This document shows positions 21,673 through 57,780 of a stretch of DNA of 62,541 nt, piece by piece (the first letter of the stretch is position 1; each line of letters starts with the position of its first letter). Source of the stretch: a virus; UHGV virus genome UHGV-0208829; one strand, 5' to 3'. The translations under genes and the position numbers were made by a program. The notes beneath the pieces were generated by a model. That model saw only the letters and a program-made list of their open reading frames with translations, had not been told where the DNA came from and searched no databases.

Positions 21673-24600
21673 TTATTTAAGTGTCGCGGGTAAATCAGGC
21701 ACAGCCTCCCCATCGAGTATACGCCCGATGAGAATCCCGGCTTGTTCACCTACAGCATTCGCGGTACCGATACGTTGGATTGAACCTACGATACGCGCAT
21801 CGACGGAATCACGACCGAACAACACGTCCAGGTCATCGCCATCCTCTGTTTTGTTGTCGCCGTACATGACTTCTTGTACGGTGGTTTTTAGCTGGTTAGC
21901 AATAACCATCTTATCCGCAGCGGCCATCTCAACGTCGTGTGTAATAAAGAATCGAACACAAAGTGAGTTAAAGGCCAAGGGTACACCTTCAACACGGTAG
22001 TCGCCGTTTACACTGCCTGAAACCGGATCACCGCGTCCGACTGCCAGTGCGGCTTTACGACGAATTCTGTCGTATTTACGCACCAGTTCAGCAAGACTTG
22101 GCGTCATGTCTTCGGTTTCACCGTGATACACCACTTCGATTTTATCCACGATACCACGTACCCCTGCACGAGGTGCGTACGAACTTAAACTTTGCAACGT
22201 TGCGGCTGCTTCCTGACTAAAGGCACTCATATCTCCCGTCAAGTCGTCAGTAAACGTGCATAGGATTGTATCGACGTCTACGTGGTCGCCTTCATTCACG
22301 ATTTCCAAAAGCATCTGGTTGCTGTTAATCGTCACTTCTTTCAGCTTTGTTACCTGCCCCACCATTTTCTTCGCGAACCGTTCAGAAATTGCGTTGGAGT
22401 CTTCGATAACTTCTTCAGCTTCTAATAAAGCAACGGTGGCCAGCACCCCGTTTTTCCAGGAAACCTGAGTAGGATCGTAAATATCAGGTTCAAAGTGTTG
22501 CTCGTTGTACGTAATCACTGCCCCGGCCGGGAGCTTGTCACCGGCTTTCCAGCGTGTTACCAAGGTGTGCGGATAGAAGGTACCTTCGTGGGGGCCGAAC
22601 CAGCGCCCTAGAGGAAAGGCTTCTTTACTTCCATCTTCGTACGTAATTTCAATGTGGTCTTTCGACAGACCAGTAATCTTACCTGCTTTATCAATAACGC
22701 GTGCATGTTTCACCGAAGTACGGTGAGCGACGAATTTCTCCTGTTCAGTACGATACGGGGTTGTGGTTGCCCCATTACAACTGGTGGCAGAACCTAACTG
22801 AATCCCAACGAAGTTTTGACGTTTTGCATCGTCCATTAAGGTATCGGGTACTAACCCGTCAATAAACGAAAGGGTATCGCTTGGTTTCGGGGTTTTCTCT
22901 TCACGCTTAAACGTGGTACCGTCAACGGTGTCAAAACGTGGGTTATTGGTGACGAAAGCAGTAATCCCTACGTCGCCGTTATCTACGGTGTTACCCGAGA
23001 CTATCCCGATATCACTGGGTTGGAACTCACGCGTGTGGTAGACCATCGTTTTACGATTACGACCACCTGTACCCCCCATCGTAATAACGTCTTTTTCTTT
23101 AATTGACTGGATAGGGTTAGCGCCTGGTGCCAAAAGTACCGACGGGTCGGAGTTAATTGCACCCCAAACCATGTCTTGCGTCAGTTCGAACTTACGGTTA
23201 CTACCCGGTGCGTTATTGTAGTTACGCATCGCTCTGACCATCGCAGTATAGATGTGGTAGGCAATCCTCTGATTTCCTAAGAACATCATTTCGTCGCCGT
23301 TAATCTCTGGTAAAGAGTGGTCAGTTTGTAACAGTTCGTTAGAACGTTCCAGCAAGCCAATAAAGGTTTCCGGCTCACCCATTTTCCTGAGGATACGTGC
23401 GTGCATGTCGTCAACAAACGCGGACCGCATCTGTTTCAGCTCGTTGATGTACCGTGGTGTTAGGCCATCTGCTTCACGTAATAAGTTCAGGTAAATGTCT
23501 TCGCGGTCTGCTTCTGATTCGGTATAAGCAACCAGGTGTTTGAGATAGCGATCCAAACCATGCAGAATCATCCTCTGCTGATCGTTATCGCAAGTAACTA
23601 AAAGTTTACAGTCTTGTAGTCGAATAATACTGTCGTAGGCATTCTTATCAACACGCTGACCTGTAGGAACCAACTCGTACTGGATACCGAAATGTTTCAA
23701 CATTCCCTGGAGTCCAAGATAGAACGAGAAGATAAAACCAAGCGACAAAGATTTACCCATCAAAGACAGCTCGGTCATTTCGCGAGGCACTTTCTGGTTA
23801 TTAAAGCCCAGTACCTCTGCGATAGTTCCCACCGGTTCAACTTTGTTTCCGTTCACACCGTAAAGCATGGATTTGTCATCCATTGCCAGGATTGTTTCAC
23901 TACGCGGACGTTTCGCCACTGGTAAAAGTTTGGCAGCATCGGCGTCTCTGAGTTGCTCGTCGTTAAAGAAGTTAACGGCTTCTTTGTAGTCGAAGTTCCA
24001 CATATAGCCATTCGCATTAAAGCTGGCAATACGACGTGCAATCTCCGTATACTGACGAGGCAGATGTTGCGTAGGATCGAACACATTTGCTAAACGTGCA
24101 TCGGTGACTTCGGTGTTTGTCGGGTCAACAGCGCGTGTGATGATCGCGTTGGTTAACCAACGACCGTAATCGTTCGCGACCTTATCACTACGACGGACAA
24201 AGTTTTTACCGTAAGCGGTAGTCAGTGCGACAGTATCCGGTGCAACTTTACGAATCGGTAAGTCCACACGTTGCCGACGCATGGTGTATTCGACACCATT
24301 AGCGACCCAAGTACCGTCCTCGGTCAAGCCTGGGATAGAGAAGCGAACGGTTGTTGGCTCACCACCGACTGGCTGAACACGTAAAGTGTGGTGCTCGATA
24401 GTTCCTGTAACAGAAACTTCTTTTTCCACCGTGTGGTTGTGAACCGCCAGACCCAAACGTTGTGAACTGGCGACCGCCGCCAGTACGTCTTTGGTCATCA
24501 TGGTCTGGTTGTATTGTTTCACCATCTGGTCGGTGACGTTCTCTGCCCACCCTTCATCGGTAACAAGCCGCTGAACTTTTTTCGGTTCGGCTTTAACGAC

Positions 24601-25839
24601 AATATCTTTCTCGTGAACAGTCAGTGCTTCCCCGTAGGTTTCTTTCGGGTTATACGGGTTAGGTAGCTGAACGAAACGTTTAGACGATTCTGACAGGAAC
24701 TGATACGCTTTAGAACTTAAGCGGCCCGCTTCAGCTAAGCGTTGTGCTTCCTGTTTAATAATCTCGTCATGCGGAATGACTTTCTCGACGACGATAGTCG
24801 TCGGTTTGACGTCTTCCTTCGGTTCTTCAATAACGACGTCTTCTTTTTCATCGAAGGTGTTATCGGATTCCACCACAGCGTCATTAACAACGTCGTCATC
24901 GTCGACAACATCAACGGTTTCTTCTTCGACGTCTTTAAGGAAAACACGCTCGTCGCCTTCAGGCGTTAGGAATTCCGCTTCGTACGCGTTAGACGGTGCT
25001 TGTGTCATTACACGCACCAGCGTACGGTAGAACATCCTGGCCATTTGGTCGTCACTTAAACGACCGCCGGACGACTTACGCATTTTCTCTACAACACCCA
25101 TGTTCATGGACGTGAAGCCCGTGTTGTGGGTGAAGATAAAGTTCATTCGTGACAGCTGAGTTAAATCCATTCCCGAGAATAAGGAATCGGATTGTTTTCC
25201 ATAAGCCCAAGCAAACAACTCCAATAGCCACAGCAAGTTGAAGTCCTGGAACTTCTCAATCTTGCTCTTAACGCGGTCGTTATAGGTTGTTTGAAACTTC
25301 TGGAACGAAGGTAGAGTCGAACCCAGTTCAATAACGAAATAGTTCTGACGCATGTATTCTTGCGTGTCGTATTTGAACTGGTTAATCATCAACAGTTGGA
25401 TGTTACGCAGTCTATCGTACCAGGCTAACTGGGTGTCAGGATAGTAATAGTGCGATAGCATCGGTGTGTAGTTCTCGACCAGGAGAACTTTTAAGTCTTT
25501 GCGAACCAGATCGTCTGAGGTAAGACGACGCATCGGGCGGTTTGCACGGTGGTAGGCAAAGATAGCACGTTCTTGCCCCTGAACAGGTTTGTTGCGAGGA
25601 TGGCCGCTAATACCGTCTTCCGGTAATTTAAAGTGGTGACGAACCTGTGCAGGTTTTTCTAACGGTTGAATAATCTCGAGTGTTGCAGGTGGCGCTAATA
25701 CCACCTGGTCGAGATCAATGACATGGAGTACAGAACCACGTGGTATCTGTAGCTTCTCGAGCGGGATAATCCTCGGATTACCAAACTCGTCAGTTTTACG
25801 CACCGAGAAGCGTTGGTTAAACTGTTTAATGAGCAGCAT
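21673..25839 (-). CDS. very large protein (1388 aa) immediately downstream of RNAP beta-prime-like gene; possible RNAP partner subunit
   Basis: ATG start 9 nt after upstream stop; acidic low-complexity linker; only weak RNAP-like matches, so function unassigned. Confidence 0.55.
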   Translation of the reverse strand: MLLIKQFNQRFSVRKTDEFGNPRIIPLEKLQIPRGSVLHVIDLDQVVLAPPATLEIIQPLEKPAQVRHHFKLPEDGISGHPRNKPVQGQERAIFAYHRANRPMRRLTSDDLVRKDLKVLLVENYTPMLSHYYYPDTQLAWYDRLRNIQLLMINQFKYDTQEYMRQNYFVIELGSTLPSFQKFQTTYNDRVKSKIEKFQDFNLLWLLELFAWAYGKQSDSLFSGMDLTQLSRMNFIFTHNTGFTSMNMGVVEKMRKSSGGRLSDDQMARMFYRTLVRVMTQAPSNAYEAEFLTPEGDERVFLKDVEEETVDVVDDDDVVNDAVVESDNTFDEKEDVVIEEPKEDVKPTTIVVEKVIPHDEIIKQEAQRLAEAGRLSSKAYQFLSESSKRFVQLPNPYNPKETYGEALTVHEKDIVVKAEPKKVQRLVTDEGWAENVTDQMVKQYNQTMMTKDVLAAVASSQRLGLAVHNHTVEKEVSVTGTIEHHTLRVQPVGGEPTTVRFSIPGLTEDGTWVANGVEYTMRRQRVDLPIRKVAPDTVALTTAYGKNFVRRSDKVANDYGRWLTNAIITRAVDPTNTEVTDARLANVFDPTQHLPRQYTEIARRIASFNANGYMWNFDYKEAVNFFNDEQLRDADAAKLLPVAKRPRSETILAMDDKSMLYGVNGNKVEPVGTIAEVLGFNNQKVPREMTELSLMGKSLSLGFIFSFYLGLQGMLKHFGIQYELVPTGQRVDKNAYDSIIRLQDCKLLVTCDNDQQRMILHGLDRYLKHLVAYTESEADREDIYLNLLREADGLTPRYINELKQMRSAFVDDMHARILRKMGEPETFIGLLERSNELLQTDHSLPEINGDEMMFLGNQRIAYHIYTAMVRAMRNYNNAPGSNRKFELTQDMVWGAINSDPSVLLAPGANPIQSIKEKDVITMGGTGGRNRKTMVYHTREFQPSDIGIVSGNTVDNGDVGITAFVTNNPRFDTVDGTTFKREEKTPKPSDTLSFIDGLVPDTLMDDAKRQNFVGIQLGSATSCNGATTTPYRTEQEKFVAHRTSVKHARVIDKAGKITGLSKDHIEITYEDGSKEAFPLGRWFGPHEGTFYPHTLVTRWKAGDKLPAGAVITYNEQHFEPDIYDPTQVSWKNGVLATVALLEAEEVIEDSNAISERFAKKMVGQVTKLKEVTINSNQMLLEIVNEGDHVDVDTILCTFTDDLTGDMSAFSQEAAATLQSLSSYAPRAGVRGIVDKIEVVYHGETEDMTPSLAELVRKYDRIRRKAALAVGRGDPVSGSVNGDYRVEGVPLAFNSLCVRFFITHDVEMAAADKMVIANQLKTTVQEVMYGDNKTEDGDDLDVLFGRDSVDARIVGSIQRIGTANAVGEQAGILIGRILDGEAVPDLPATLK

Positions 25840-25848
25840 TGCTTAGCC

Positions 25849-27468
25849 TTATGGGTTCTTTAATAACGCTTGCGTTGCACGTTTAATCACGTTGTTGATA
25901 GGATTGATTTTAAAGTTCCCATCAGAATCGAACCAGTAGTTTTTCGAGTGTATCCAATTCCGGTTTTCCTCGAGTGCTTCCTGGGACATAGGCGCGTTAA
26001 ACGACCCGGTATCGCCGTCGTAGTCACCCCCTAAGCCACCTAAGCGTGAAGGGTGTGGTGCCATCGACTCAACGAAGGTAGGAACCGACCGGTCAGGGTA
26101 GCTGATAGCCCCTCGGGGTTTTTCAGTTTCCCAGTCATCTTCCAGTTCTTTTAAGTATAAAGATGACGTGGTGGTCTCCAATCTTATGGTCGATGAATAC
26201 GTCGAGCCTCGGCCTGTAACGGGATAACGTGTAACGAAACCGAAATAATCGTTCCAAAGTTCGTAGCCCGACAAATAAAGCAATTCGACGAGTGTCATAC
26301 CGTGGACGAATTTTCGGTCAAACGTTTTAGGAAGTTCTTCAATATCGTAGAACACCTTAAAATGTTTGGTGTCTTGGTAAACCAACGCAACGTAGTGGGT
26401 GTCGTCCAACATAATCGGCTGATGGCGAAGCTCGCGAGCTTCCATTCGGTTGATTAAGGATTCAATCCCATCGTCGGTGGTGAATGTGTCGTATACACGA
26501 CCACCTACTTCCAAGAATTCACGTTTAAGGGTTTTGGTGTTTACGCCGTAAAGGTTGCCGTCACCAGCACGGATGTTACCGAGGTAACGTTCACGTATCT
26601 GGTATTGCGCAACGGGGAGTAATGCTTTTAAACCCTGGTATAAACCAATTTTGGTGTCGGTGGGACGAATAGCGTCTTCACGACCCATGCACTTAGACCC
26701 CGTCGAGAACGAGGACAGTACGTTACGTGTCCCGTTCATTAATTTACGAGACGTCACTTTACGACGTTGGAAACCCCCTTTACCGTCTTGGATGTTAAAG
26801 AAATACATCCAGATATCGTTGAAGGTTTGTTGCAGCTTCCAGCGTACGGGGTTAGTTAATTCAACACGGGTTGCTCGGTCAGGGATCGCCCTGGCGAGTG
26901 ATACCAACCGACGATACATCCCGCCGATTTCTTCTTCCTGTTCTCTACCATCTTGTCGAATTACTAAATCGCGTAAACCCGCGGGTAACACGAGAACGTA
27001 TCGACTAAGACTAACGGGACGGAATTTCAAAAAGAAATCCACGGTTTCGTCACGTTGTAGAGACTCGTTACGCTTAGGTTTTAAATCGTTATAGTGACTG
27101 AGGAAGAAGTTAAAACCGGTATCTGCGCCTGGGTCTCCCGGCAAGGCCGGTTCGAAATCTTTTTCTTTTTCGCTCCACGTTGCGTAGCGTTTTCCAGAAC
27201 AAATTTCTTCGTAGAGTTGTTTGAGTTGGAATAACGCCAAACACACCGTCGGCGAAATGATATCGAGTTTAATATCGATATAAGAGAAAGTAGAGTCTCG
27301 CGCTTCACTCCCCGTGAGTCCAAATATCTCTGTAGAGTAAAGACCTTCGGGGTGAAAGTTTTTTGTTAACCCCTGGAAAGTATCCGTGGTCGTGACGGGT
27401 CGTAATCGCGACACAAGAGACTTGTTTACATTGAGCAGATAAAAGTCAACCCAATTAAGTTTATTCAC
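25849..27468 (-). CDS. multisubunit RNA polymerase beta-prime-like subunit, N-terminal split fragment
   Basis: 539 aa; YVLVLPAGLRDLV...IGGMYRRL (region B-like), GKGGFQRRKV (region C-like), catalytic GDYDGD at 26011-26025 near C-terminus; GTG start with AGGAG 8 nt upstream. Confidence 0.65.
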   Translation of the reverse strand: MNKLNWVDFYLLNVNKSLVSRLRPVTTTDTFQGLTKNFHPEGLYSTEIFGLTGSEARDSTFSYIDIKLDIISPTVCLALFQLKQLYEEICSGKRYATWSEKEKDFEPALPGDPGADTGFNFFLSHYNDLKPKRNESLQRDETVDFFLKFRPVSLSRYVLVLPAGLRDLVIRQDGREQEEEIGGMYRRLVSLARAIPDRATRVELTNPVRWKLQQTFNDIWMYFFNIQDGKGGFQRRKVTSRKLMNGTRNVLSSFSTGSKCMGREDAIRPTDTKIGLYQGLKALLPVAQYQIRERYLGNIRAGDGNLYGVNTKTLKREFLEVGGRVYDTFTTDDGIESLINRMEARELRHQPIMLDDTHYVALVYQDTKHFKVFYDIEELPKTFDRKFVHGMTLVELLYLSGYELWNDYFGFVTRYPVTGRGSTYSSTIRLETTTSSLYLKELEDDWETEKPRGAISYPDRSVPTFVESMAPHPSRLGGLGGDYDGDTGSFNAPMSQEALEENRNWIHSKNYWFDSDGNFKINPINNVIKRATQALLKNP

Positions 27469-27497: not shown

Positions 27498-30400
27498 ATG
27501 GCTAAAAAAGGTAAAGATGATTTCGATGAAATCGATCTTGATAACATGGACGACTGGGACGATTTTGATGAGCCCCCTCGTCAACAAGACCAATCGCGTA
27601 ACCCGGTCATGGACACATTTCGTGCTGCCCGTAAGTCGGCGTTGTCGACTATCTGGCCCGAAAACAAACGTGATCAGGTTATTTTAAAAGGGATGCCTAA
27701 ACCTGCGGCAGAAGCCTACGAAGGCTATCAAAACGTTAAAGCTGCAGGTCAAGACATTCTGGCCCATACGAAAGACGAGATTGAAAAGACGTCTCGCGTC
27801 GTTAAGATGCAAGCGAGACAGTTAGGCCCAACACTGAAACGGTATTTACCGGAATCCGTAACACGGAAAATCGACAAGTGGGCACGTAACGATCAAATCG
27901 ACTATGGGAATTACGATCCTAAACAAGCGATGATGGATCGTGAGCTGGACAGCGTGTTCTCAGGTGCACCGCAAACGGCGGACCAGCAACGCGAAACGCA
28001 AGAAGGGATGGTTGAAGACCGCTTGCGTGACACGATTAAGGACATGAAGTCCGACGCACTGTTCCAGACAGTAATCGGTATTGCAAAAGACGTCAACTTA
28101 ACGACTAGCTTAAGTCGTGGCGTGTTGTTGAATGTTCAGCGTAAGCAGTTAGAGCTGCAATACCGGACATTGTTTGCTTTGCAGGATATTGCGAAACTCA
28201 AACAAGACGAGTTTGCACGCAATACACCGGCATTAGAAGCCATCGTTAAGAACACAGCACTGCCAGACTACGCGAAGGAAGAGTTTTCTGAAATTCGTTG
28301 GGCTAATGTAAAACGTAAAGCTGCGGAGTGGATGAACCCCTTACACTACGCAGATAATTTCATTGGTCAGATTCGCGAAAACGCGAAGAAGAAAATCTCG
28401 AACATCTTTAGTGATGGTCGTGGGATTCTAGAACAAGTTCTAGGGATGGCTCAGGAAGATGACTTTGACATGTCGGACAGCTCATCGTTGTCTCCTGACC
28501 GTCGTAACACAAACTCGCGTAATAAAGCGGCAGGTTTTGCAGGTGGGTGGGTCGCAAAACGTCTCTTACAACCCCAGATCGAACGTCTTCAGAACTGGAC
28601 CCGTGGCGAGTTAGAGAAAAACCCAGAAGTCATGAAACGCCTACAGTTGGCGAAGTATGGCTTTGGAAATTTGTCGTCTATTTCTAACTCGGCAATAGCA
28701 GGAGAAACAAGCGGTCCGTTAGCTGATCTGTTTCGACTAATGCACGAGTTGGGGTTAGTTAACCCGCTACGTCGCGAAACCTTAGCATTAGACGATCGTT
28801 CTGCGGAATCTCTTTCTGCCGCGGCGAAATTCGATCGTAAAGCTTACCTTAGTATCACCGAAGTTATTCCGACGTTACTGTCCGAGATTAACAAATCTAT
28901 TCGTCGTGGGTATGGCGAACACCACGATCAGGTTTATGACCTGACCACGCGCGGCATGGTGGATCGCAAAGTTATTGGTAATCGCGTACGTAAGGCCGTT
29001 GCTAATGACGATCAGCGCAAACGTTTACAGACGTACATCAACGACACTGTCGACTTTATCGATAAAGATAAAACGCTCGATAGGAAAACACGTCAAGCGT
29101 TAGCGGACTACATCGAATCTCGTGCCTCAGAAGGGAAAGCGTTCGATGTAGGGTCTTTATTGAAAGACCCGATGCACATGTATCGGTACATGAACGCAAA
29201 CGCTGTGGAAGCGATTCAGGGTATTTTAGAAACCCGTTCTGCGGAACTGGTTGGCGGTCACCATGAACTGAGTAATGCGATTTCAAACAAAATCGCCGCT
29301 ATTCAGTCAACGATTCGTGCACGTCAAGACACGGTTGATGCTGCGTCTGTGATTTACGGCGAGAACGCACTTCGCGATTCCGGTATTTTTAAATACGATG
29401 CGAAGAACGACATTTTCGAAGTCGATAAGGACATTAACGATCCCTATACGCTATTTAACGACCTGTCGATGGGTAAGACCCGTTCTGGCCGTTCGTTAAC
29501 CCGTGAGCAAGAGATTCAACGTAAGCTGCAAAATGGTTCTGCGTTGGGTGATTACTTGCGTCGGATGGGTGCAGGAGCAGAGCCGAGCTTTGAAGACAAA
29601 GAACTGTCCAACGTACGTGGTGGTGGAAAAGGTGGTCGCGGTCGTGGTTTAAGCGCCCGTCAACTCGCTGCGGTACTTTATGGAGAGAAATCTACCAACT
29701 TTGTTGAGCTCTTAAGCAACCGTCCAGATACGAACGCTGGGCTGGAACAACAGTTCGATCGATTGATTGATGCGGTACGTAAACAGTCCGAATCTAGCAC
29801 CGTGCAAGATATCCTCAAACACGTTAAGAACATGGATGAGGAAGGTATTCTTCTAGCCAGTTTAGGCGGTAGCCGTGATGACGGTGACGAACCTGAAAGT
29901 TCGAGTGAATCGGGCCGTAAACGTCGTCGTAAGCGCAAACGTATTGTACTAGGCGAGACAGGTTTGCTACGTCGCTGGGCTGGGGTGCTTTGGGATACCG
30001 GTTCTGGTGTAGGACGGTTTGGTAAGAATCTGTTCCTACGTGGGAAAGATCGCCTACAAGCATTAGGTGGTTTTATTCGCGGGAAATTCTCAGGCGGTTC
30101 CTCCGAAGGTCCCGGCGTATTTAGCCGACTGAAAGGGTTAGTAACCGGTACATTATCGACGGGTTGGAATTCTGCCGTAGCTTTCGGTAAAGGCGTTTTA
30201 GGCGTTCGCGACATCTACGATGAACGTGGTAACGTCGTATTACAAGGAAGTCGTTTAGAGGCTGGGGAATATTACCAGGCTGACCCGAAAACTGAGAAGC
30301 TGATTCAACTTAAAACTCTCGACGATATTAAACTGGGACGTGACATCGTCGACGAAGCGGGTAATTTAATCTTAGCGGCTGCTGATTTGGCTGCCGCAGG

Positions 30401-31010
30401 TAAACTGCGCTTCTACAAAGGCGGTAAAGTTCAAGCGCTTTTCCAGTACATTTCTGGGAAAGCAGGAACGGCGGTAAACAAAGCTGTGACTTTACCGAAG
30501 AAACTTCTGGGTTTCATTTCGCCTAAAGCGGCTTCGTTGTTCGAGAAAGCACGCGAGTGGTTAAATGAGGTTCCAGAGGGTGCAGAGAAAACCCGTTTAC
30601 AAAGCATGATTTCCCGCGTAACGGGAATGCCAGCTCGTCTGTGGAACAATGCAAAACGTGGGTTTGAGAAGCTCAAAGAGTTGGCTTCTGATAATCCGTT
30701 GACACGTTGGTGGCAGAACCGTAAGGAAGGGGGCTCTGGTGGTGGGTTTAGTGTGTTCTCGTGGTCGAATGGCCGTAAAACTAACCACATCCTAATCCGT
30801 ATCTACAAACTCCTTAACCGGAGATTGCCAGGTGAACCTGAAGATGACACCTGGACAGAACAGATGGAGCGGAATACAGGGGCCAGTTCAGTTAAAGGAT
30901 TATTCCAACGTGCTAAGGCCATACGCGATGGGTTCCGTGAACATTTTCAAGGTTTCCGGGTTTGCGTGGTCGGATGCGTGACAGAATGTCCCGTTACCGC
31001 AGTGCGGTAG
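27498..31010 (+). CDS. giant protein (1170 aa), probable virion-associated
   Basis: ATG start; acidic N-terminus, Gly/Arg-rich and polybasic RKRRRKRKR segments. Confidence 0.55.
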   Translation: MAKKGKDDFDEIDLDNMDDWDDFDEPPRQQDQSRNPVMDTFRAARKSALSTIWPENKRDQVILKGMPKPAAEAYEGYQNVKAAGQDILAHTKDEIEKTSRVVKMQARQLGPTLKRYLPESVTRKIDKWARNDQIDYGNYDPKQAMMDRELDSVFSGAPQTADQQRETQEGMVEDRLRDTIKDMKSDALFQTVIGIAKDVNLTTSLSRGVLLNVQRKQLELQYRTLFALQDIAKLKQDEFARNTPALEAIVKNTALPDYAKEEFSEIRWANVKRKAAEWMNPLHYADNFIGQIRENAKKKISNIFSDGRGILEQVLGMAQEDDFDMSDSSSLSPDRRNTNSRNKAAGFAGGWVAKRLLQPQIERLQNWTRGELEKNPEVMKRLQLAKYGFGNLSSISNSAIAGETSGPLADLFRLMHELGLVNPLRRETLALDDRSAESLSAAAKFDRKAYLSITEVIPTLLSEINKSIRRGYGEHHDQVYDLTTRGMVDRKVIGNRVRKAVANDDQRKRLQTYINDTVDFIDKDKTLDRKTRQALADYIESRASEGKAFDVGSLLKDPMHMYRYMNANAVEAIQGILETRSAELVGGHHELSNAISNKIAAIQSTIRARQDTVDAASVIYGENALRDSGIFKYDAKNDIFEVDKDINDPYTLFNDLSMGKTRSGRSLTREQEIQRKLQNGSALGDYLRRMGAGAEPSFEDKELSNVRGGGKGGRGRGLSARQLAAVLYGEKSTNFVELLSNRPDTNAGLEQQFDRLIDAVRKQSESSTVQDILKHVKNMDEEGILLASLGGSRDDGDEPESSSESGRKRRRKRKRIVLGETGLLRRWAGVLWDTGSGVGRFGKNLFLRGKDRLQALGGFIRGKFSGGSSEGPGVFSRLKGLVTGTLSTGWNSAVAFGKGVLGVRDIYDERGNVVLQGSRLEAGEYYQADPKTEKLIQLKTLDDIKLGRDIVDEAGNLILAAADLAAAGKLRFYKGGKVQALFQYISGKAGTAVNKAVTLPKKLLGFISPKAASLFEKAREWLNEVPEGAEKTRLQSMISRVTGMPARLWNNAKRGFEKLKELASDNPLTRWWQNRKEGGSGGGFSVFSWSNGRKTNHILIRIYKLLNRRLPGEPEDDTWTEQMERNTGASSVKGLFQRAKAIRDGFREHFQGFRVCVVGCVTECPVTAVR

Positions 31011-34000
31011 GTGGCCGTCTTTCTCGTTGGGGTGGTGCAGCACGTGATTGGTTTGACCGTTTCCGTGGCCGTGCAAGCGATATGGTCGATACCTTCCGTG
31101 ATCCGCGTTACGATATCGGAACACGTTATCGAATGGAGAGTCGTTTAGCAGGACGCGATGACGACGTTGCTGAGTTTTATCGTCAACACATCTACGCAAG
31201 AGGCAAGGTGTCTAAAACACGTATCATCGATGCGGCAAAAGAAGACTTAGATACCGTAACGGATAGCGCTGGACGTGTGATTAATAAAGGGAAACAGAAA
31301 GCCCGTAGCGTTGGGTCGGCTTTACTGGAACGCCTGAACAGAATGGTTAATCTTCAGGAAATGTCGTGGTTTAATACCATGCGCGATTCTGCGGAAAAAG
31401 CAGGTGCTTCGGATGGTTTGTTAAGAACCATGTTCAGTAAGTTCGGTCAACGTAACAAGCCACCTGCCAGTGATGAAAAACGCGATTACTTCCAGTTCTT
31501 CCGACGCCGTCGTCGTTCTAAGGAAGAGGAAAAGGCTAAGAAAGAGGCTGAGAAGAAAGGCGGTAAACGTGGGGTAATGGATTTCCTTAAAGGACTGCCG
31601 TTGGTAGGACCGATTGTGAGTATTTTAGGCACAGTGGGTTCAATCTTAGGTAAAGTCGCAAAATGGGGAATCTTTAAGCCGGTTGGGTTTGCAGGCAAAG
31701 CGTTGTGGAACGTTGGTAAATTTGCCGTAACCCGTTTGGCTGTTCCTGCGGTGAGTGCTGTCGCGACGGCAGCATCTGCAGTGGTAACTGCGGTTGGCTG
31801 GCCGATTATCGGTTTGGTTGCTGCAGGCGCTGCGTTGTCTTGGTTTGCGTATAAAACTGCAACCCGTGTGAATGCCCAGTATCTGGATAACATGCGATTG
31901 GCACAGTACGGATTTAGAGATCATGATGAGTGGTCTTCCGATGATGGTGCAAAAGCACGTTATTTAGAAGACAACTTGAAACCGTATATCTCTTATACAG
32001 AGAACGGTCAAGCACAGTTGCGTGGTTTGTCCGGTGACGACGTGAAGAAACTGGCCGAAGGGTTTGGTACTAACGTAGAAGACAAAGGCGAAATGCTGGC
32101 GTTTACTGCGTTTATGTTACAACGTTTTGTGCCGATCTATTTACGTTGGATTACAGCGTTACGTTCAATGGATAACGATATCGCGTTAGCTGATGTTGGT
32201 AATCCGTCGAAGGTATCAAAAGCAGACATGCTTACCATCTTTAACAAAATGAAGATGACAAAAGATGCGCCCGCTTTTAAATCGCTGACAGACCCCCGTA
32301 AAGTTAACCAAGGTTGGTTCTCTAAAGCGTGGGATTTCGTGACCTTCACACCGGCAGAATTTTTGTCAGGTGAAGAAGTTGTCGAAGCACAAGATCGTGT
32401 TTTCCGTTCGATCAACATGCGTCGTGATGATAAGCGTAAGGAAACAACTGGAGTCGGTGCTGTGCCTGAAGGACATAAGGTTGCTTCTGTGGCAGAATCT
32501 TCGCAGGTACTCGCGAAGAACGATACCGAGCGTAACGAAACTGTTGCTAAAGCTGAGGGTTGGGAAGACGGTACTGAACAGGTTCAAATTCAAGTTGACT
32601 GGAGAGTATTACCTGAGAAGAAAGATTTGGACGCGATGGAATCCGTCCGTTGGAAATCTTACGGTGTGAAATCTGTTAATGAGACAACACGTACCCTCTT
32701 TAGGTTGCTTGAGAAAGAAGTGTTGAAGGACACGGATATCAAAAATTGCATTTATAAGGGCGATTGGAAGAAAGCAATTTCTGCGATTGCGCCTGATGCA
32801 ATTGGCGGTCCAAAAGAGGAACGTTACAAGAACTGGTTCTATAATCGATTCTTACCTGTATTCATGACTTACGTTTATGGTGTAAAACGCTACGTACCTC
32901 ATGCCGATCCGTTGGATCTGAAACTCACAGGGGGGTTCCTCTATGAGCTGGCACTGATGATGCGTGGTGCTTACAACATGAAAGGGGGTATCCGACAGTC
33001 TGTGTGGGAAATCGCATTTAACCCGTTAGGGGGCGATGCGAATACCGATGCAGGTTCAGTGAGGGAAGAATTAGCAACGCTGAAAGAGTTGTCTAAAGAA
33101 CCCGATCTGGCTGTAAGGAATATGCTCAAAGAAACACCGAGCACGCCTAAGCGTATGACATGGAAATCGCCAGCGACAAACTCCAGTGTCCATCAGACGA
33201 ATGAAGATAGCAAAGAGCGTTATAAGGGAATTAACAGCTACGGCGAAGCTTCAAACGACGGCTACTTACCGAAGGGTGGCCAGTCCTACGGTACGCCAGG
33301 TGACCTATCACAAGTTGTTGGCGATATGGGTATAGGGAACTATGCGAAATACTCCACTGGACAATCGGGTATCACCCTCGGTGAGTTACAAGACGGTGAT
33401 TACAAGTCGTTAGTGACTAAATACCCAAGGGAAGTGCTCGGCAAACCGATGCAGTCAAATACTGAAGCCATCAAGTCATTGATTATTGACGCGGCAAACA
33501 TGGTGGGTATTCCGCCATCTGTTGCGATTGCAATGGCACAAGCAGAATCTGGCTTGCAGTATGGCAACTATCCTGGCGCATCCTCTGGCAGACCGAGAAG
33601 TAATAAGATGACTGCCGCTGGCCTGTTCCAATTCACCAACGGTACTTGGAACGGGGTTATGAAGCAATACGCCCGAAGATACGGTATCCCACAAACCGAT
33701 CAGTTCGACCCGTGGGCTAACGCAATCTTAGGTGTTAACTTCATTAGAGACAACATCAAGACCGCACAAAAGGATCTGGGTGGGATTGCCCCGCCACCGG
33801 CAGTAGCGTACCTATACCACTTCTTAGGTCCAGGTGGTGGTGCTGAGTTCCTTAAAGCCTGGAAAACCAATCCTAACGGCTCGCCCGACAAAGTGAAGTA
33901 CATTACACCTGCCGTTCTTAACGGTAACGAAGGTGTTTTCTACATCATGAACGGGAAGAAACGCGTTAGGATGCGTACGGTCGGCGAGGTTGTCGAGGAG

Positions 34001-34663
34001 CTGAACCGCCGTATGGGTGCGGTTGGAACTAACGAGATTGCAGCAAATCCTGCGTCTGCGAAAAACATGACAAAAGGGTTATCGCCAGTTCCATCGTCTC
34101 CTGCAATTGCTGCGGGCGCTGCTAACGATCCGTCTATTGCTGGACCGGCAGATAACCTGCCAGCCGCGAACGAGGCGAATCGTGACACCGCTTTAGCAGA
34201 CAAAGGTGCGATGGGTGCCGAAGATATTAAAGCTGCAACGGGTGGTGGTCCGGCTGTGCCGAGTCCTGGCGGCGACGTTACGCCGAGTGATGCGTCTGTC
34301 GTTGTAGAAACGGTGGGTAAAAATGCGCGTGCCGACGGCCTGGCCGAAGAGGAAGTTGCCAAAGTAAAAGAAGGTGCTAGACAGCAAATGGAGAAATCCG
34401 CACGTCCTGCACCAACGGTAACGTCTGATGCACAGACTGCGCCAACAGTGAACAGCGGCGATCCGATTAGCGTACAACAGCTGGCGGTTGCAAAAGAGTC
34501 TGCGGGCTATCTGAGAGAGATTGTTACAATTCTTCGTCAGCGGCCACAGGCTATGCAGCCATCCCCAGCGACCTCGGCAGCTTCTGCTCCGGGATCAGCA
34601 TCACGTAACATCGCGGTTGAACAACCTGCCCGCCAACTCGATGTTGGTCGTAAACGGGCGTAA
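30974..34663 (+). CDS. giant protein with lytic transglycosylase (SLT) domain and transmembrane segments
   Basis: First ATG at 30974 (track start 30962 is TTG); SLT motifs AMAQAESGLQ ... AAGLFQF ... AYLYHFLGPGG around 33430-33900; hydrophobic stretch; Ala/Pro-rich C-terminus. Confidence 0.6.
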   Translation: MRDRMSRYRSAVGGRLSRWGGAARDWFDRFRGRASDMVDTFRDPRYDIGTRYRMESRLAGRDDDVAEFYRQHIYARGKVSKTRIIDAAKEDLDTVTDSAGRVINKGKQKARSVGSALLERLNRMVNLQEMSWFNTMRDSAEKAGASDGLLRTMFSKFGQRNKPPASDEKRDYFQFFRRRRRSKEEEKAKKEAEKKGGKRGVMDFLKGLPLVGPIVSILGTVGSILGKVAKWGIFKPVGFAGKALWNVGKFAVTRLAVPAVSAVATAASAVVTAVGWPIIGLVAAGAALSWFAYKTATRVNAQYLDNMRLAQYGFRDHDEWSSDDGAKARYLEDNLKPYISYTENGQAQLRGLSGDDVKKLAEGFGTNVEDKGEMLAFTAFMLQRFVPIYLRWITALRSMDNDIALADVGNPSKVSKADMLTIFNKMKMTKDAPAFKSLTDPRKVNQGWFSKAWDFVTFTPAEFLSGEEVVEAQDRVFRSINMRRDDKRKETTGVGAVPEGHKVASVAESSQVLAKNDTERNETVAKAEGWEDGTEQVQIQVDWRVLPEKKDLDAMESVRWKSYGVKSVNETTRTLFRLLEKEVLKDTDIKNCIYKGDWKKAISAIAPDAIGGPKEERYKNWFYNRFLPVFMTYVYGVKRYVPHADPLDLKLTGGFLYELALMMRGAYNMKGGIRQSVWEIAFNPLGGDANTDAGSVREELATLKELSKEPDLAVRNMLKETPSTPKRMTWKSPATNSSVHQTNEDSKERYKGINSYGEASNDGYLPKGGQSYGTPGDLSQVVGDMGIGNYAKYSTGQSGITLGELQDGDYKSLVTKYPREVLGKPMQSNTEAIKSLIIDAANMVGIPPSVAIAMAQAESGLQYGNYPGASSGRPRSNKMTAAGLFQFTNGTWNGVMKQYARRYGIPQTDQFDPWANAILGVNFIRDNIKTAQKDLGGIAPPPAVAYLYHFLGPGGGAEFLKAWKTNPNGSPDKVKYITPAVLNGNEGVFYIMNGKKRVRMRTVGEVVEELNRRMGAVGTNEIAANPASAKNMTKGLSPVPSSPAIAAGAANDPSIAGPADNLPAANEANRDTALADKGAMGAEDIKAATGGGPAVPSPGGDVTPSDASVVVETVGKNARADGLAEEEVAKVKEGARQQMEKSARPAPTVTSDAQTAPTVNSGDPISVQQLAVAKESAGYLREIVTILRQRPQAMQPSPATSAASAPGSASRNIAVEQPARQLDVGRKRA

Positions 34664-51959: not shown

Positions 51960-52057
51960 CGAGCTTTACCTTTATGGAAGAGTCTCGGTCATAAGGTTTG
52001 GGTGAACTGTAAAAAGACTTTACTATGTAACCCTGACTTATAATCCGAGGTTTTAGA

Positions 52058-52813
52058 ATGAATGTAAATCCACTTGCAGCGTTATCTAGCTTCGCCGCTA
52101 AAGCGTCTGCAATCTTACCGAAAGGGTTTAGTGGCCCTCAACAAGAGATTGCATTAACCACTTATGACGAGATGTCGGACGTTTCCAAGTGGATGCAACA
52201 AGAAAAATTCCTACACTTTGCGGGAATGTTGGTTATCGTTCCACCTGGGTTTAATACCTACGTGATGGATCACTTGAACCGCTTAGAATCTGTATGGAGT
52301 TCACTACAAAACATCTACACGGGTATTCTGCTGCCGGTCGATAAACAACTTTCGGCCCTTACACATGATGTGGGGGTACTGTCATTACCGATTGGTTTCC
52401 GTTACAAAAATGTTAATTTACCGCTACGTAATGTTAACCCGAAAGACCTGGTTAACTTATTAGCGAAATCGTACACTAATAACGTTATTGACCAGCGACC
52501 AATTGAGAAGACGTACCATAGCGCTTCTGAGATTGACGTTGCGTTCAATCGTGCTAAAGCCCTGAACGTTGAAATTACGAAACGTTTACGGACGAACATC
52601 GACAAGTCAATCGAGTCCATTCGCACTACGTCGGAAATCTTGTCTGAACAAAACATTCATCCGAATGTAGCAAAAGAACTGACGATGATGTTAGATTTTG
52701 CATCCGATTGGGTGGAGCTGTTTGGTCTGTTCATGAAACAGGTTAACGAGTTAATCGAATGCCTGAACGTTACTGCCGAACGCTTAAAAGCGCTTAAGGC
52801 AAACAAAAAATAA
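52058..52813 (+). CDS. hypothetical protein (251 aa)
   Basis: ATG with GAGG upstream; terminator after stop. Confidence 0.55.
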   Translation: MNVNPLAALSSFAAKASAILPKGFSGPQQEIALTTYDEMSDVSKWMQQEKFLHFAGMLVIVPPGFNTYVMDHLNRLESVWSSLQNIYTGILLPVDKQLSALTHDVGVLSLPIGFRYKNVNLPLRNVNPKDLVNLLAKSYTNNVIDQRPIEKTYHSASEIDVAFNRAKALNVEITKRLRTNIDKSIESIRTTSEILSEQNIHPNVAKELTMMLDFASDWVELFGLFMKQVNELIECLNVTAERLKALKANKK

Positions 52814-52829
52814 AAAAAAAGTAAAGTTA

Positions 52830-52853
52830 CCCCTAGACCGTGTGGTCTAGGGG
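52830..52853. terminator. bidirectional intrinsic terminator
   Basis: 10-bp stem cccctagacc/ggtctagggg, loop gtgt, A-run upstream and T-rich downstream. Confidence 0.7.
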
Positions 52854-52861
52854 TAAACTAT

Positions 52862-53761
52862 TTATTTCCCACGATAAAATCCAGAAATGTAACTCGGCGC
52901 TATCCATCGCCATTCGCGCCAGCGCATTTCTGACATCTTACCACACCATACACGCTTCCAATGCGCACGACGGATATGTGCGGCGCAATAAATCGCCAAA
53001 CAAACCTCGTGTCCTTCCTTGCGTTGCTGCTCTATATCTTCCCATTGTAGCGGACTTACATCTAAAACGACCGCTTCACTACGTGGGCGAATTTCTGTAT
53101 CAGGAACATAACGAATGGACCTTCCACGAAATTCTTTCTTCTCACGTTCAGTTCGTTTAATTCGCGATGAAAGATATAACCCGATGTAGACCGCGTCGAG
53201 TAGTCGTTGATTCTCCTTAACCGAAGTAAGGAGCGGCTTTAACTCCACGAAATCATCATTACTTTTATCGATCGTGTAAATCTCAAACTCCATGTATACC
53301 GACTCGTCATGTTCTTCGCATGACATCACAAAGAGAACTTCTTCACCTTCGTAAAGACGTCTTCCGATAAATAACGTGATTGGACTTTCGTCGAGATTTA
53401 CAGTAACCGAGAAAGTAAATGAAGGGATGGTTTCTATCCAGAAGTACGGGATATTTTTTAGTCTCTCAGTTTTTGCTAAGAGCGCCATCAGTTCTTCATC
53501 CGAGATGATTTCAACAGCAGCGTATTGCCATCCTAGTCCCAGGGACTGCTTAATCAGTCTGGGGATCTGTTCGGTAACGCCATACTCACGATAGGTCGGA
53601 TCTTTAACTGGCATAAACGTTACGGGTATTTGACGTTTATGCTCGTTAATGAACCGAATAAAGCGACACTGATCTAATCCGTGAATTGTTTGGTGTGCCT
53701 TTTCTATTTGTTCGCTCATGCGTCTTAGCGCTTTCCCGTAAAGTCTATTATTCGTTGTCAT
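52862..53761 (-). CDS. hypothetical protein, tandem paralog B (299 aa)
   Basis: Track start 53917 overlaps upstream gene; ATG at 53761 has AGGAG 8 nt upstream; C-terminal AAHIRRAHWKRVW...WIAPSYISGFY. Confidence 0.5.
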   Translation of the reverse strand: MTTNNRLYGKALRRMSEQIEKAHQTIHGLDQCRFIRFINEHKRQIPVTFMPVKDPTYREYGVTEQIPRLIKQSLGLGWQYAAVEIISDEELMALLAKTERLKNIPYFWIETIPSFTFSVTVNLDESPITLFIGRRLYEGEEVLFVMSCEEHDESVYMEFEIYTIDKSNDDFVELKPLLTSVKENQRLLDAVYIGLYLSSRIKRTEREKKEFRGRSIRYVPDTEIRPRSEAVVLDVSPLQWEDIEQQRKEGHEVCLAIYCAAHIRRAHWKRVWCGKMSEMRWREWRWIAPSYISGFYRGK

Positions 53762-53786
53762 TTTAATACTCCTAAACACTTTTAGC

Positions 53787-54713
53787 TTAATTGTGGGGTA
53801 CGTAGCCACGGACAAATGTAGGTGGAATCCAACAAAGTTTTCTCTTTCTTTCACCATTTCTAGGGCCGACCCAATATCTGCGCCAGTGAGCGCGACGGAT
53901 GTGGGCAGCCTTAGCATGTTTGATACCCTGCATGGTTTTCAAGTCAGTGTTAAACCCTTTTAGATAATTCACTTGTCCTGGCGTGATATCTATCTTAACA
54001 TCGCGTTCACGAGGTTTAACGTCGTAACTAATACTACCGTTCTTTTTGATTTCCTTGAACTTAATATCATTAAAAGACTCCCTGTAATTAGGCGGGATTA
54101 GCGTACACAGAAATATCATCGAAGTGGCGGCTTTGGCCAGAGATAACCATAGCATCTTTTCTTGTTCGTTCTCCACACCGTCGGCATAGTCGATTTCAAC
54201 AAGCCCGTTTCCAACACTACATATCTCTAACGAGCAGGTGGCGATTGTGGTAACGCCTTCTGTTAACCCGTAATCAGTATTTGTAGCAATTATAATAAAC
54301 CTTCTCTTCCCGTTTTTTCGATAGCCGAGAAAGAAAGTCTCATCCTCTTTACCTACGTCGATTGCTACAGTCCATGTGGGTATAAAGTCCAACCATTCTT
54401 CAGGGAATTTACTGGGCATCTCAGTCTCGAAAACAAGTTCTCTAAGTGCTTGGTTGGATATTAAGGAAGCACCACCGTATAGCCATCCAATTGCCAATGT
54501 TTGAGCGTGAAGGGAACGGGGATCTTTGAGACCTAACTCAGCGTCGTAAGGTATAAAGGCATTGGTTAAATGGTTACGATTCTTTTTTATCCATTTCGAG
54601 ACAGGATTTTCCTTTATTCGGTTTTCTTCCATGACATTTTCAAGATGCTGAGACCCCATTTGTCTAAGGCAGTCTTTAATACCTTTTACTTTTTTACTTT
54701 TGTACAAATACAT
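53787..54713 (-). CDS. hypothetical protein, tandem paralog A (308 aa)
   Basis: ATG start; C-terminal AAHIRRAHWRRYW...WIPPTFVRGY shared with paralog B. Confidence 0.5.
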   Translation of the reverse strand: MYLYKSKKVKGIKDCLRQMGSQHLENVMEENRIKENPVSKWIKKNRNHLTNAFIPYDAELGLKDPRSLHAQTLAIGWLYGGASLISNQALRELVFETEMPSKFPEEWLDFIPTWTVAIDVGKEDETFFLGYRKNGKRRFIIIATNTDYGLTEGVTTIATCSLEICSVGNGLVEIDYADGVENEQEKMLWLSLAKAATSMIFLCTLIPPNYRESFNDIKFKEIKKNGSISYDVKPRERDVKIDITPGQVNYLKGFNTDLKTMQGIKHAKAAHIRRAHWRRYWVGPRNGERKRKLCWIPPTFVRGYVPHN

Positions 54714-54748
54714 GGTTTATTCTCCTAAAATGGTTAAAAATAAAGTAA

Positions 54749-54766
54749 CCCTAGCCGAAGCTAGGG
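54749..54766 (-). terminator. intrinsic terminator for gene 54773..55261
   Basis: Stem ccctagc/gctaggg, loop cgaa, minus U-tract. Confidence 0.6.
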
Positions 54767-54772
54767 TGTCTA

Positions 54773-55261
54773 TTAGTCGATTTTGACGTAATCAGGATAA
54801 TTAGCTTTTAGCCACTCCCATAGTTGCAGAGCAAGTTGGTTTTCGTTACGCTTGATGATTTCTACGATTTCGTTCAAGAGAGAGTCTTCAACCCAAATCC
54901 GGGTATAAAATTTTTCCCATTCCGGTTCTGTATAAGGGACTAGCGGAGTAGGGAATCGACCCATGTGGTACGCATCAGAAACTTTCTTTAAGAACTCGTT
55001 GCGACCATGGCGTAGACGTTGCCGAACGTCTGTTTCTGTCATGCGCTTGCTTGATGGATCGAAGAAGTCAAGTATGATAAATATGTATCCAAATAAGCTC
55101 TGAGAAGAAAAGTAGGACGCGGCGTAGTCCGCCATCCAGGGAGTGTCTACAACCAACGGAGTCAACTTTTCTTCAATTTCTTTTCTTACACGTGTTTCGT
55201 TATTGAGAAATTCATGTACGAAATCGGTGTCACGAATATCGAAGTTATGATTTAAGTTCAT
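54773..55261 (-). CDS. hypothetical protein (162 aa)
   Basis: ATG start. Confidence 0.5.
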   Translation of the reverse strand: MNLNHNFDIRDTDFVHEFLNNETRVRKEIEEKLTPLVVDTPWMADYAASYFSSQSLFGYIFIILDFFDPSSKRMTETDVRQRLRHGRNEFLKKVSDAYHMGRFPTPLVPYTEPEWEKFYTRIWVEDSLLNEIVEIIKRNENQLALQLWEWLKANYPDYVKID

Positions 55262-55262
55262 T

Positions 55263-55787
55263 TTATTGTCCTAAAATTGGGGAGAGTTTGTCTGCGGTGT
55301 TTAACAACGCTTTTGTAATTTCGTGGTTGGTCTCTTTTAGGATGGCGCAGCAGAGAGTGGTATAAACCTCGATTGCTAACGTGATTTCTTGTTCAGTCAG
55401 GCACGGTTCGGTACCGCCAACCCCATAACGTTGAGCTGCATATTCAATTTCAAGTTTCAAACGTTTTCGTAGTGCTTCGTCATTAGTTAAACGCGTACAT
55501 GTCCGATCGAAACGTCTATTGTAAGCCTCGATCTTGTGGACAATTTCGCGTCGCAGTTGGTCGACATTTACGTTATCATCAAGAGTGATGGTGACGTTGT
55601 CAACTAAACAGTAATGCACTGTGTGTCGTAAGTTGTGTAATGTGGCGACAGTAACGACCCGCTCCTGATGGTCGCTAAAGCCGTGAGCACCACAGAGCTT
55701 GCGTGCAACTGCGCCGGAGATTTTCTCCTCTAGCGCTATCGGTGTGGCAATGGTTGTTTTCTTACGAAGCTGAATTAAAATATCCAC
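55263..55787 (-). CDS. hypothetical protein (174 aa)
   Basis: GTG start with AAGGAG 8 nt upstream. Confidence 0.5.
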   Translation of the reverse strand: MDILIQLRKKTTIATPIALEEKISGAVARKLCGAHGFSDHQERVVTVATLHNLRHTVHYCLVDNVTITLDDNVNVDQLRREIVHKIEAYNRRFDRTCTRLTNDEALRKRLKLEIEYAAQRYGVGGTEPCLTEQEITLAIEVYTTLCCAILKETNHEITKALLNTADKLSPILGQ

Positions 55788-55789
55788 GA

Positions 55790-56332
55790 TTATACTCCTT
55801 TAAGTTGACCGTATTTTGATGACAGGTAGATGAGTTCAGCATGGCAGATTTTCTCAACTAACCCGAGTGTCTCAAGGAAAATATCCCGGATACGGGACAT
55901 TGTTTCATTGGTAAGAATATCGCTCCAACACGTTGTGTCTATTATATCCGTCGTTGAAGATTGTCGCTGCAATATGGCGACATACACTTCATCGAGGGTA
56001 TCTGGAGCATTATTCTGTAAGTAATGCGCGGCATGTAGAAAGGCTTTCTCAAGAATCAGGTGAATATCCGTATCGGGATCAGTTACCCGCACCAAATGTG
56101 GGTATGTCATGGCCGAATGGATTTTTCGCTCTAACTGTTCAATGAGATTATTCACCATCGCTTCTGAATCCAGGATAGTAATTTCGACCCCACTGTGTTC
56201 TTCAGAAATCTTGTTCTCATGTACTGCTATCGCGTCGTGCAGTTCAAACGCAACGCGGCTACGCATCCCACTTAACAGTTTGTTTAATTTACCCCGTGAC
56301 TCGCTGAGTGAGAAATCGATAAGTATTTTCAT
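55790..56332 (-). CDS. hypothetical protein (180 aa)
   Basis: ATG start. Confidence 0.5.
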   Translation of the reverse strand: MKILIDFSLSESRGKLNKLLSGMRSRVAFELHDAIAVHENKISEEHSGVEITILDSEAMVNNLIEQLERKIHSAMTYPHLVRVTDPDTDIHLILEKAFLHAAHYLQNNAPDTLDEVYVAILQRQSSTTDIIDTTCWSDILTNETMSRIRDIFLETLGLVEKICHAELIYLSSKYGQLKGV

Positions 56333-57095: not shown

Positions 57096-57117
57096 TACAC
57101 CTGGATAATATCTATCT
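57096..57117 (-). promoter_or_regulatory. conserved promoter-like motif, site 3 (plus reading ttacacctGGATAATATCTATC)
   Basis: Same motif as sites 1 and 2; overlaps 3' end of gene 57112..57780. Confidence 0.4.
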
Positions 57118-57780
57118 AAGAATATTTTTAGCGAAAAAAGGATCGACTGTAAACTCCTTCACCTGTGAGTCATAACCCGAATGTATTTGATCGCTACTGA
57201 GCAAATACCCGTCTAAATCGTGTGGAAGAATCCAAGAATCGCCTTGTTTAAAAATACCATAATCTGTTGTTCCAGAGGAAAAAACGATTTCCTCTGGAGA
57301 CGAATAGATGTGGCGTAAGGCAAGATCTGACGGCTTTAACACGATTAATCGAACGGGATGTTGACTGACTGCCTCTTTAATAAACTGTTCACGATTAAAC
57401 CAAATTATTTTTTCGGGGTAAGTTTCGAATTCAGCCCATGTCCGCGTGATAACTAATTTGGAAATCTTTCTCAATTCTTCAGAATGCTCTGCGTAGCCGA
57501 TACACTCCTTGCGCACTTCATGATTTTCTACCGATGCTGCGAATTTTTGGAATAGGTGTTGTTGGAAAAAGCCGTTCTCCGGGATATCACAACCTGCGTT
57601 GTATAGTGCAATGATCTCCCACAACAACGAAAGAGAAAACACAAATGCTAACTTTTCCACCACTTCCCAATCTTCGGAGTAAGGGGCTTTAAAGCCCCAA
57701 TACTGCCGTGCGTTATACATAAAGTGAGTTTGTAAAAACCGGGGGGCTTTTGACAAGACCTCACTATAAACGATCAGCAT
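57112..57780 (-). CDS. hypothetical protein (222 aa)
   Basis: ATG start; 7-nt overlap with upstream gene. Confidence 0.5.
   Translation of the reverse strand: MLIVYSEVLSKAPRFLQTHFMYNARQYWGFKAPYSEDWEVVEKLAFVFSLSLLWEIIALYNAGCDIPENGFFQQHLFQKFAASVENHEVRKECIGYAEHSEELRKISKLVITRTWAEFETYPEKIIWFNREQFIKEAVSQHPVRLIVLKPSDLALRHIYSSPEEIVFSSGTTDYGIFKQGDSWILPHDLDGYLLSSDQIHSGYDSQVKEFTVDPFFAKNILR

Follow-up and report, generated by a model that had tools for sequence, protein, structure and literature searches.

The window analysed here is a stretch of 62,541 nucleotides (nt) of the virus genome UHGV-0208829, and its minus strand carries, side by side, two genes that we call A and B. Gene A (53787-54713) encodes a protein of 308 amino acids (aa) and gene B (52862-53761) its AcrVA2-like paralog of 299 aa. 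It seems probable to us, on the whole, that the two products are AcrVA2-type silencers of mRNA, guided by polypeptides and directed at two different targets other than Cas12a.

The preliminary description of this DNA saw a two-gene unit lying between strong terminators, and its gene sizes and coordinates are right; folding energies and z scores against shuffled controls confirm both hairpins. The upstream one, an intrinsic terminator on the minus strand (54748-54767), consists of ACCCTAGC-TTCG-GCTAGGGT followed by a T-run, with an 8-bp stem that includes 5 GC pairs (dG -15.5 kcal/mol, z -4.8). It stands directly after the stop codon of the upstream 162-aa gene, ends the transcript of that gene and insulates the A/B cassette. 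At the other end, a hairpin with a 13-bp stem (52827-52856) is terminator-like on either strand (dG -24.9 and -25.6 kcal/mol, z -5.3 and -6.4), and this bidirectional terminator is common to B and to a convergent gene of 251 aa on the plus strand (52058-52813; phrog_4682, of unknown function). Terminator hairpins with such long stems are few: the final 20 kb of the window contain only about five, with both cassette hairpins among them.

Gene A is preceded by an AT-rich leader of 34 nt (54714-54747), with an AGGAG ribosome-binding site at 54722-54726. The A-B spacer is 25 nt long (53762-53786) and has an AGGAG of its own at 53769-53773, which is 8 nt upstream of the B start codon, the ATG at 53759-53761. 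A terminator scan found no terminator-like site in this spacer, and A and B are therefore probably co-transcribed. A longer open reading frame (ORF) for B, of 351 aa and starting at 53917, was rejected, as it would overlap A by 131 nt and lacks a ribosome-binding site, and the B orthologues start at the internal ATG.

Relationship of A and B to AcrVA2

The paralogy of the two adjacent genes of about 300 aa, proposed in the preliminary description, holds. BLASTP aligns A with B at E=2e-21, with 24% identity over 286 columns, and both match phrog_6160, a family of unknown function, A at 2e-36 and B at 9e-19. The C-terminal blocks that had been quoted are present in both proteins. The first is AAHIRRAHWRRYW in A (53871-53909, minus strand; H271, R273 and H276) and AAHIRRAHWKRVW in B (52946-52984, minus strand; H262, R264 and H267, the translation having been checked against the sequence), and the second reads WIPPTFVRGY in A and WIAPSYISGF in B. 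A further block, given as LGW.Y, needs trimming: it is literal in B (LGWQY), but A has IGWLY, and what the two have in common is GW.Y. The motif had also been thought to belong to no assignable family, which has to be revised, because both proteins fall in a described family, Pfam PF26125, named "AcrVA2-like". Either membership in a housekeeping family or a loss of the paralogy under alignment statistics had been named as what would speak against the original proposal; both were checked, and neither was found.

Evidence for the family comes from several sides. Compared with the sequence of the AcrVA2 crystal structure 7CI1, A alone gives E=4e-5, in the C-terminal region only. A 12-sequence profile, built from A, B, three metagenomic homologues and seven homologues from cultured phages, reaches E=4.8e-10 and covers AcrVA2 almost end to end, aligning profile positions 70-300 to chain residues 54-317. 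A precomputed PF26125 annotation stands on all homologues in the large protein collection, those 95% identical to A included, and B orthologues bear it as well; the contig look-up places it on both tandem genes of relatives, under the name "AcrVA2-like". Our local copy of Pfam-A returned no match for A, B or five homologues, apparently because the PF26125 model is missing there, and NCBIfam returned none. The AlphaFold2 (AF2) model of B, with a predicted local distance difference test (pLDDT) value of 63, has a single significant Foldseek match, which is AcrVA2 (7ci1_B, E=2e-4, probability 0.99). As modelled, then, the predicted three-dimensional fold is the same as that of the AcrVA2 crystal structure, and A and B are diverged members of the AcrVA2-like family (PF26125, PHROG 6160). 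A PADLOC match of B to Csx19 was dismissed as noise (E=0.0098, with no domain passing).

The distance from AcrVA2 itself (Moraxella bovoculi prophage; PDB 7CI1/7CI2; PF26125) is large. Identity to A and B is only 11-18%, and the first ~70 residues are unrelated. AcrVA2 is single and sits on a Moraxella prophage, whereas A and B are two tandem copies on a lytic jumbo phage of Enterobacterales-type hosts; unlike AcrVA2, they have no adjacent acrVA1-like partner. The family as a whole is very large and has a variable N-terminus. An exhaustive profile search yields 5,185 cluster representatives at E<=1e-3, of which 1,195 remain at E<=1e-30, and most of the matches align from about profile position 75 to the end.

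What is known of AcrVA2 gives these alignments a functional meaning. Marino et al. (10.1101/2022.11.29.518452) reported that AcrVA2 cuts Cas12a mRNA and protein more than ten-fold, whatever the promoter or codon usage; that it binds the conserved LSKT residues in the N-terminal polypeptide of Cas12a; and that the effect needs translation. The substitutions H286A, R288A and H291A abolish the down-regulation of Cas12a mRNA and leave binding intact, whereas W79A and D89A impair function moderately. The structures of AcrVA2 homologues are alike in the C-terminal domain and become dissimilar nearer the N-terminus. In the crystal structure 7CI2, three other residues, E98, D129 and D195, contact the Cas12a 620-636 peptide.

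We mapped these residues in a 166-sequence MAFFT alignment that includes the AcrVA2 fragment taken from the profile match; the pairwise placement of W79 by HMMER was 5 residues off, and the family-wide alignment was used instead. H286, R288 and H291 of AcrVA2 correspond to the three motif residues named above in A and in B. They are invariant in 166 of 166 members, a count that is partly circular since the top 150 sequences were selected by a profile containing the motif. W79 corresponds to W77 of A and W78 of B, and the position is tryptophan in all members but one (165/166). D89 corresponds to N87 of A and D88 of B; aspartate stands there in 129 of the 166, and also in the type-2 A alleles. 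As to the residues contacting Cas12a, A keeps only the first, as E96, and B has a lysine at that position; the other two fall in gaps. Neither copy has lost the putative effector signature HxRxxH, and there is no sign that Cas12a is the target.

Alleles, recombination and the insertion slot

Both genes are under purifying selection and functional. The ratio of nonsynonymous to synonymous substitution rates (dN/dS) is 0.05-0.26 for A and B where it could be computed, thus below 1 throughout, and is lowest (0-0.07) in the C-terminal ~85 residues. Gene A can be divided into a variable N-terminal and middle part, residues 1-222 (54048-54713, minus strand), which includes W77 and N87, and a constant C-terminal part, residues 223-308 (53790-54047, minus strand).

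The division is seen most clearly in two near-identical phages among the metagenomic relatives, L012 and L008, whose nucleotide backbones are 97-100% identical. From the upstream 162-aa gene through about residue 222 of A, identity between the two falls to 54-83%, and from window position ~54043 it is back to 96-99%, over the C-terminal part of A and over B. The dS is 1.2-1.5 in residues 1-222 of A and 0.16 in the C-terminal part, and at the protein level the C-terminal part is 100% identical between the L012 and L008 allele types (window against L008, 94%), with a dN/dS of 0-0.05; it is also identical in P0001, P0002 and P0003. This drop and return of identity inside A, between such similar phages, places a recombination breakpoint at about residue 223, between the variable and constant parts.

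Exchange between lineages is seen as well. The A protein of the window is 94.5% identical to that of L012, with a dS of 0.34 (0.14-0.28 in the first 222 codons). The backbone genes of the same pair differ with dS of 0.8-2.4, which indicates that the A allele was recently exchanged between lineages. B, on the other hand, is 63% identical between the window and L012 lineages, against 92-96% for its neighbours. Three combinations of alleles were seen: A1+B1, A1+B2 and A2+B2. A mosaic of this kind fits genes engaged in conflict, and it also fits the published idea of a variable part that would recognise the target and a C-terminal part that would bring about the effect. In one relative (L009:1186-1300; ENA ERZ27318539 k141_26687), the B orthologue is interrupted by an in-frame TAA roughly 25 codons after its start, and what is left is an ORF of 270 aa that begins at a codon other than ATG; this variant may have no active B.

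The cassette occupies a slot bordered on one side by the final gene of the upstream operon and on the other by the convergent 251-aa gene beside UvsX. In SPN3US and pEa_SNUABM_29, the slot is empty. A single AcrVA2-like gene fills it in SaP7 and EC001 (same species as SPN3US), in Asesino and in pEa_SNUABM_4 (Machinavirus), and two such genes do so in the window and all its close metagenomic relatives, the only clade in which two are found. The Alexandravirus phages also have a single copy near UvsX, but the neighbours there are co-directional and the gene order is different. With 0, 1 or 2 copies in relatives, the cassette is dispensable and accessory. The single-copy genes (Asesino gp235, SaP7, EC001 MGA_211, pEa_SNUABM_4 gp243 and Alexandra gp249; phrog_6160) show 21-30% identity over 74-88% of the length. 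Those of the SPN3US, Asesino and Machinavirus types share the slot with A and B, upstream of the 251-aa gene and UvsX. All are annotated as hypothetical, and in their stead the window clade has a tandem pair with shuffled alleles.

How the slot was filled can be read from the comparison of EC001 with SPN3US. In SPN3US, gp213 and gp214 are adjacent, parted by one bidirectional terminator; in EC001, a unit made of a terminator hairpin, an AT-rich leader with its ribosome-binding site and the gene is inserted there. A bidirectional hairpin like that at 52827-52856 is common to both phages, and the insert sits before it. At the position equivalent to the upstream hairpin, a hairpin with a T-run is found in Asesino, SaP7, EC001 and pEa_SNUABM_4, though the sequences are unrelated. 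Both the conserved position of the upstream terminator and the insertion of a single unit in EC001 bear out the insulated cassette envisaged in the preliminary description.

The cassette is thus comparable to the morons of phages, which are present or absent between collinear genomes and bring their own terminator and ribosome-binding site; as EC001 and SPN3US show, the insert separates two genes that stand next to each other in a close relative. The moron concept, however, comes from temperate lambdoid phages and is defined by a private promoter; a sigma-70 scan found none for A and B, and the carrier is a jumbo phage with its own RNA polymerases.

The tandem arrangement is unusual for the AcrVA2-like family. 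Among 93 loci with a family match, 79 of them from a scan of IMG/VR viral contigs, tandem copies within 4 kb occur only in the window clade and in the unrelated L061 (IMGVR_UViG_3300007802_000022, 30.9 kb). L061 has two AcrVA2-like ORFs about 1 kb apart, at 1226-2308 (E=3e-38) and 3305-4345 (E=5e-36); this smaller, unrelated phage seems to have gained its pair by a duplication of its own.

The carrier phage and the neighbourhood of the cassette

A megablast search of positions 52000-55500 against GenBank phages gave no match; by DNA sequence, no cultured phage is a close relative. In terms of encoded proteins, the neighbourhood is collinear with SPN3US-like phages of Salmonella and Escherichia and with the jumbo phages of Erwinia and Dickeya (Erskinevirus, Machinavirus and Alexandravirus), and the adjacent UvsX-like protein is 81% identical to the versions of SPN3US and pEa_SNUABM_29. 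The window also encodes a large terminase, a tail sheath and large virion proteins of the SPN3US/Erwinia jumbo type. Two adjacent genes on the minus strand (21673-25839 and 25849-27468; phrog_3148 and phrog_2986) encode split beta-type subunits of a multisubunit RNA polymerase, which are typical of phiKZ/SPN3US-like jumbo phages and support the placement. Judged by its proteins, the window comes from an SPN3US/Erwinia-type jumbo phage. All of the cultured relatives infect Erwinia, Salmonella, Escherichia or Dickeya. The SPN3US-like, Erskinevirus, Machinavirus and Alexandravirus genera are ones that we take to be nucleus-forming Chimalliviridae.

On the downstream side, the slot has a fixed border. 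The 251-aa gene (52058-52813, plus strand) is 92-100% identical in metagenomic relatives, and a gene of the same size stands at the same position in SPN3US, Asesino and the Machinavirus phages. On the upstream side, the 162-aa gene (54773-55261, minus strand) is hypervariable, being 98% identical to the window's in L019 and 42% in L021, two relatives whose flanking 251-aa genes are 99.6-100% identical to that of the window. Between the near-identical L012 and L008, its identity is 71%. It has no PHROG or PADLOC match. This gene may be a second swappable accessory gene, and it is possibly linked to gene A, because the replacement tract between L012 and L008 spans both.

Other genes of the region vary too. 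A 222-aa gene (57112-57780, minus strand; phrog_9472) and a 180-aa gene (55790-56332, minus strand; phrog_8379), both of unknown function and in the same operon, are 56% and 61% identical to their counterparts in L012, compared with 81-89% for their neighbours. The whole stretch between RNase H and UvsX resembles an accessory, variable region. Elsewhere in the window, two overlapping plus-strand ORFs of 1170 aa (27498-31010) and 1233 aa (30962-34663) match the N-terminal half (positions 1-1024) and the C-terminal half (1200-2406) of the 2408 positions of phrog_3201, "tail fiber protein", and the second also bears a transglycosylase region; the gene of a giant virion protein may here be split or frameshifted, or the sequence may contain an error.

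Possible function of the cassette

How would two AcrVA2-like proteins act in such a phage? By analogy with AcrVA2, we propose that A and B each use the variable N-terminal and middle part to bind a short segment of one particular protein, probably while this is emerging from the ribosome, and that the C-terminal part, with its His-x-Arg-x-x-His, would then trigger the loss of the mRNA encoding the bound protein. The two paralogs would have two different targets; rather than Cas12a, these are probably proteins that serve the host in defence or under stress, or else proteins that belong to rival mobile elements. The preliminary description had guessed at accessory, host-interaction or anti-defence functions. 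The homology to AcrVA2, the dispensable slot and the insertion as a unit all speak for that guess; its anti-defence activity and target, like the biochemical activity, the roles of the two parts and the nature of what they bind, are what we infer from these comparisons.

Several points weigh against the proposal. B alone and a 4-sequence B profile reach nothing significant among PDB sequences, and the B model is of low confidence (pLDDT 63, template modelling score 0.32), so the tie of B to AcrVA2 is partly indirect, by way of its paralogy with A, the presence of PF26125 on B orthologues and the fold. The A protein of the window has an asparagine at the position of AcrVA2 D89, the invariance of the motif has the circularity mentioned above, and, with E98, D129 and D195 not conserved, the target-binding site is not mappable. 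The route by which AcrVA2 itself destroys mRNA is unsolved, and the analogy is with one characterised member, described in a preprint (10.1101/2022.11.29.518452). Lastly, the promoter of A and B would be expected in the 34-nt leader, and the sigma-70 scan found no site there and no enrichment; because the phage brings its own RNA polymerases, whose promoters such a scan does not cover, it is uninformative here.

It could be argued that one or both paralogs are genuine type V-A anti-CRISPRs (Acrs), which recognise Cas12a and remove its mRNA, since family and fold are those of AcrVA2 and the required motif is intact. The known hosts of the relatives, however, are Erwinia, Salmonella, Escherichia and Dickeya, which have type I CRISPR systems and are not known for Cas12a. 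Moreover, phages of the SPN3US-like group shield their DNA from DNA-targeting CRISPR, so that a Cas12a Acr would be of little benefit. Cas12a is also disfavoured by the lack of conservation of its contact residues and by the low identity to AcrVA2, although the former is weak negative evidence only, given that E98, D129 and D195 are dispensable in vivo according to Marino et al. (10.1101/2022.11.29.518452). Huge-phage proteins that cluster with AcrVA2 were noted and suggested as possible Acrs (Al-Shayeb et al. 2020); AcrVA2 homologues, however, are widespread on plasmids and megaphages and occur mostly in bacteria without Cas12a (10.1101/2022.11.29.518452). Taken together, we regard a Cas12a target as highly improbable.

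A different target class is suggested by FinQ, a fertility-inhibition factor of IncI1/F-like plasmids, which is an AcrVA2 homologue that lowers the mRNA of F transfer genes (10.1101/2022.11.29.518452). Like A and B, it is reported to have the HxR motif and the C-terminal domain, a likeness that rests on its description in the literature; its target in enterobacteria is something other than Cas12a (F tra mRNA levels). Unlike them, it is plasmid-borne, and its N-terminal region is reported to be divergent. A and B might then be weapons of the same sort, silencing proteins of co-infecting phages, prophages or plasmids. The fast turnover of alleles and their presence or absence between genomes fit any conflict between elements. 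We think this unlikely as the sole answer, but it is a variant of polypeptide-guided silencing in which the mechanism is the same and the class of target differs, and no data separate it from a host-defence target. Somewhat harder to accept is that the shared fold acts in another way and without mRNA decay: A and B might, for example, bind or inhibit a mature host protein stoichiometrically, or regulate gene expression of the phage itself. The residues that are invariant across the family are exactly those required for mRNA down-regulation and not for binding, and SPN3US does without the gene, so that a core regulator is not to be expected.

If A and B are indeed mRNA silencers, it is tempting to go one step further, and with due hesitation, to a naturally retargetable system in which recombination joins a constant HxRxxH effector to exchangeable recognition parts of ~220 residues, each of which, by reading a nascent protein, directs the destruction of a different host or rival-element mRNA. 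The phage would carry two such silencers, and the parts would be swapped between lineages in response to cytoplasmic defences. We offer this as a possible but doubtful extension. Were it true, the selective pressure would come from host defences acting in the cytoplasm, where the mRNAs of the phage are translated.

The novelty is a local one: in a clade of jumbo phages, an accessory hot spot holds two such genes in tandem, with intact motifs on differing recognition regions and a mapped module swap. The type of system is not new. Among prokaryotic proteins, AcrVA2 is so far the only one for which the destruction of a specific mRNA upon recognition of its encoded protein has been reported, and the large AcrVA2-like family is found mostly where Cas12a is absent. 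The locus described here is a small experiment set up by nature, in phages whose relatives include cultured isolates that are tractable: it offers two paralogs in which the effector motif is intact and the recognition regions are very different, two classes of alleles of each, and a mapped point of exchange. Naming the two targets would show whether the mechanism extends beyond Cas12a and which host functions still threaten such phages.

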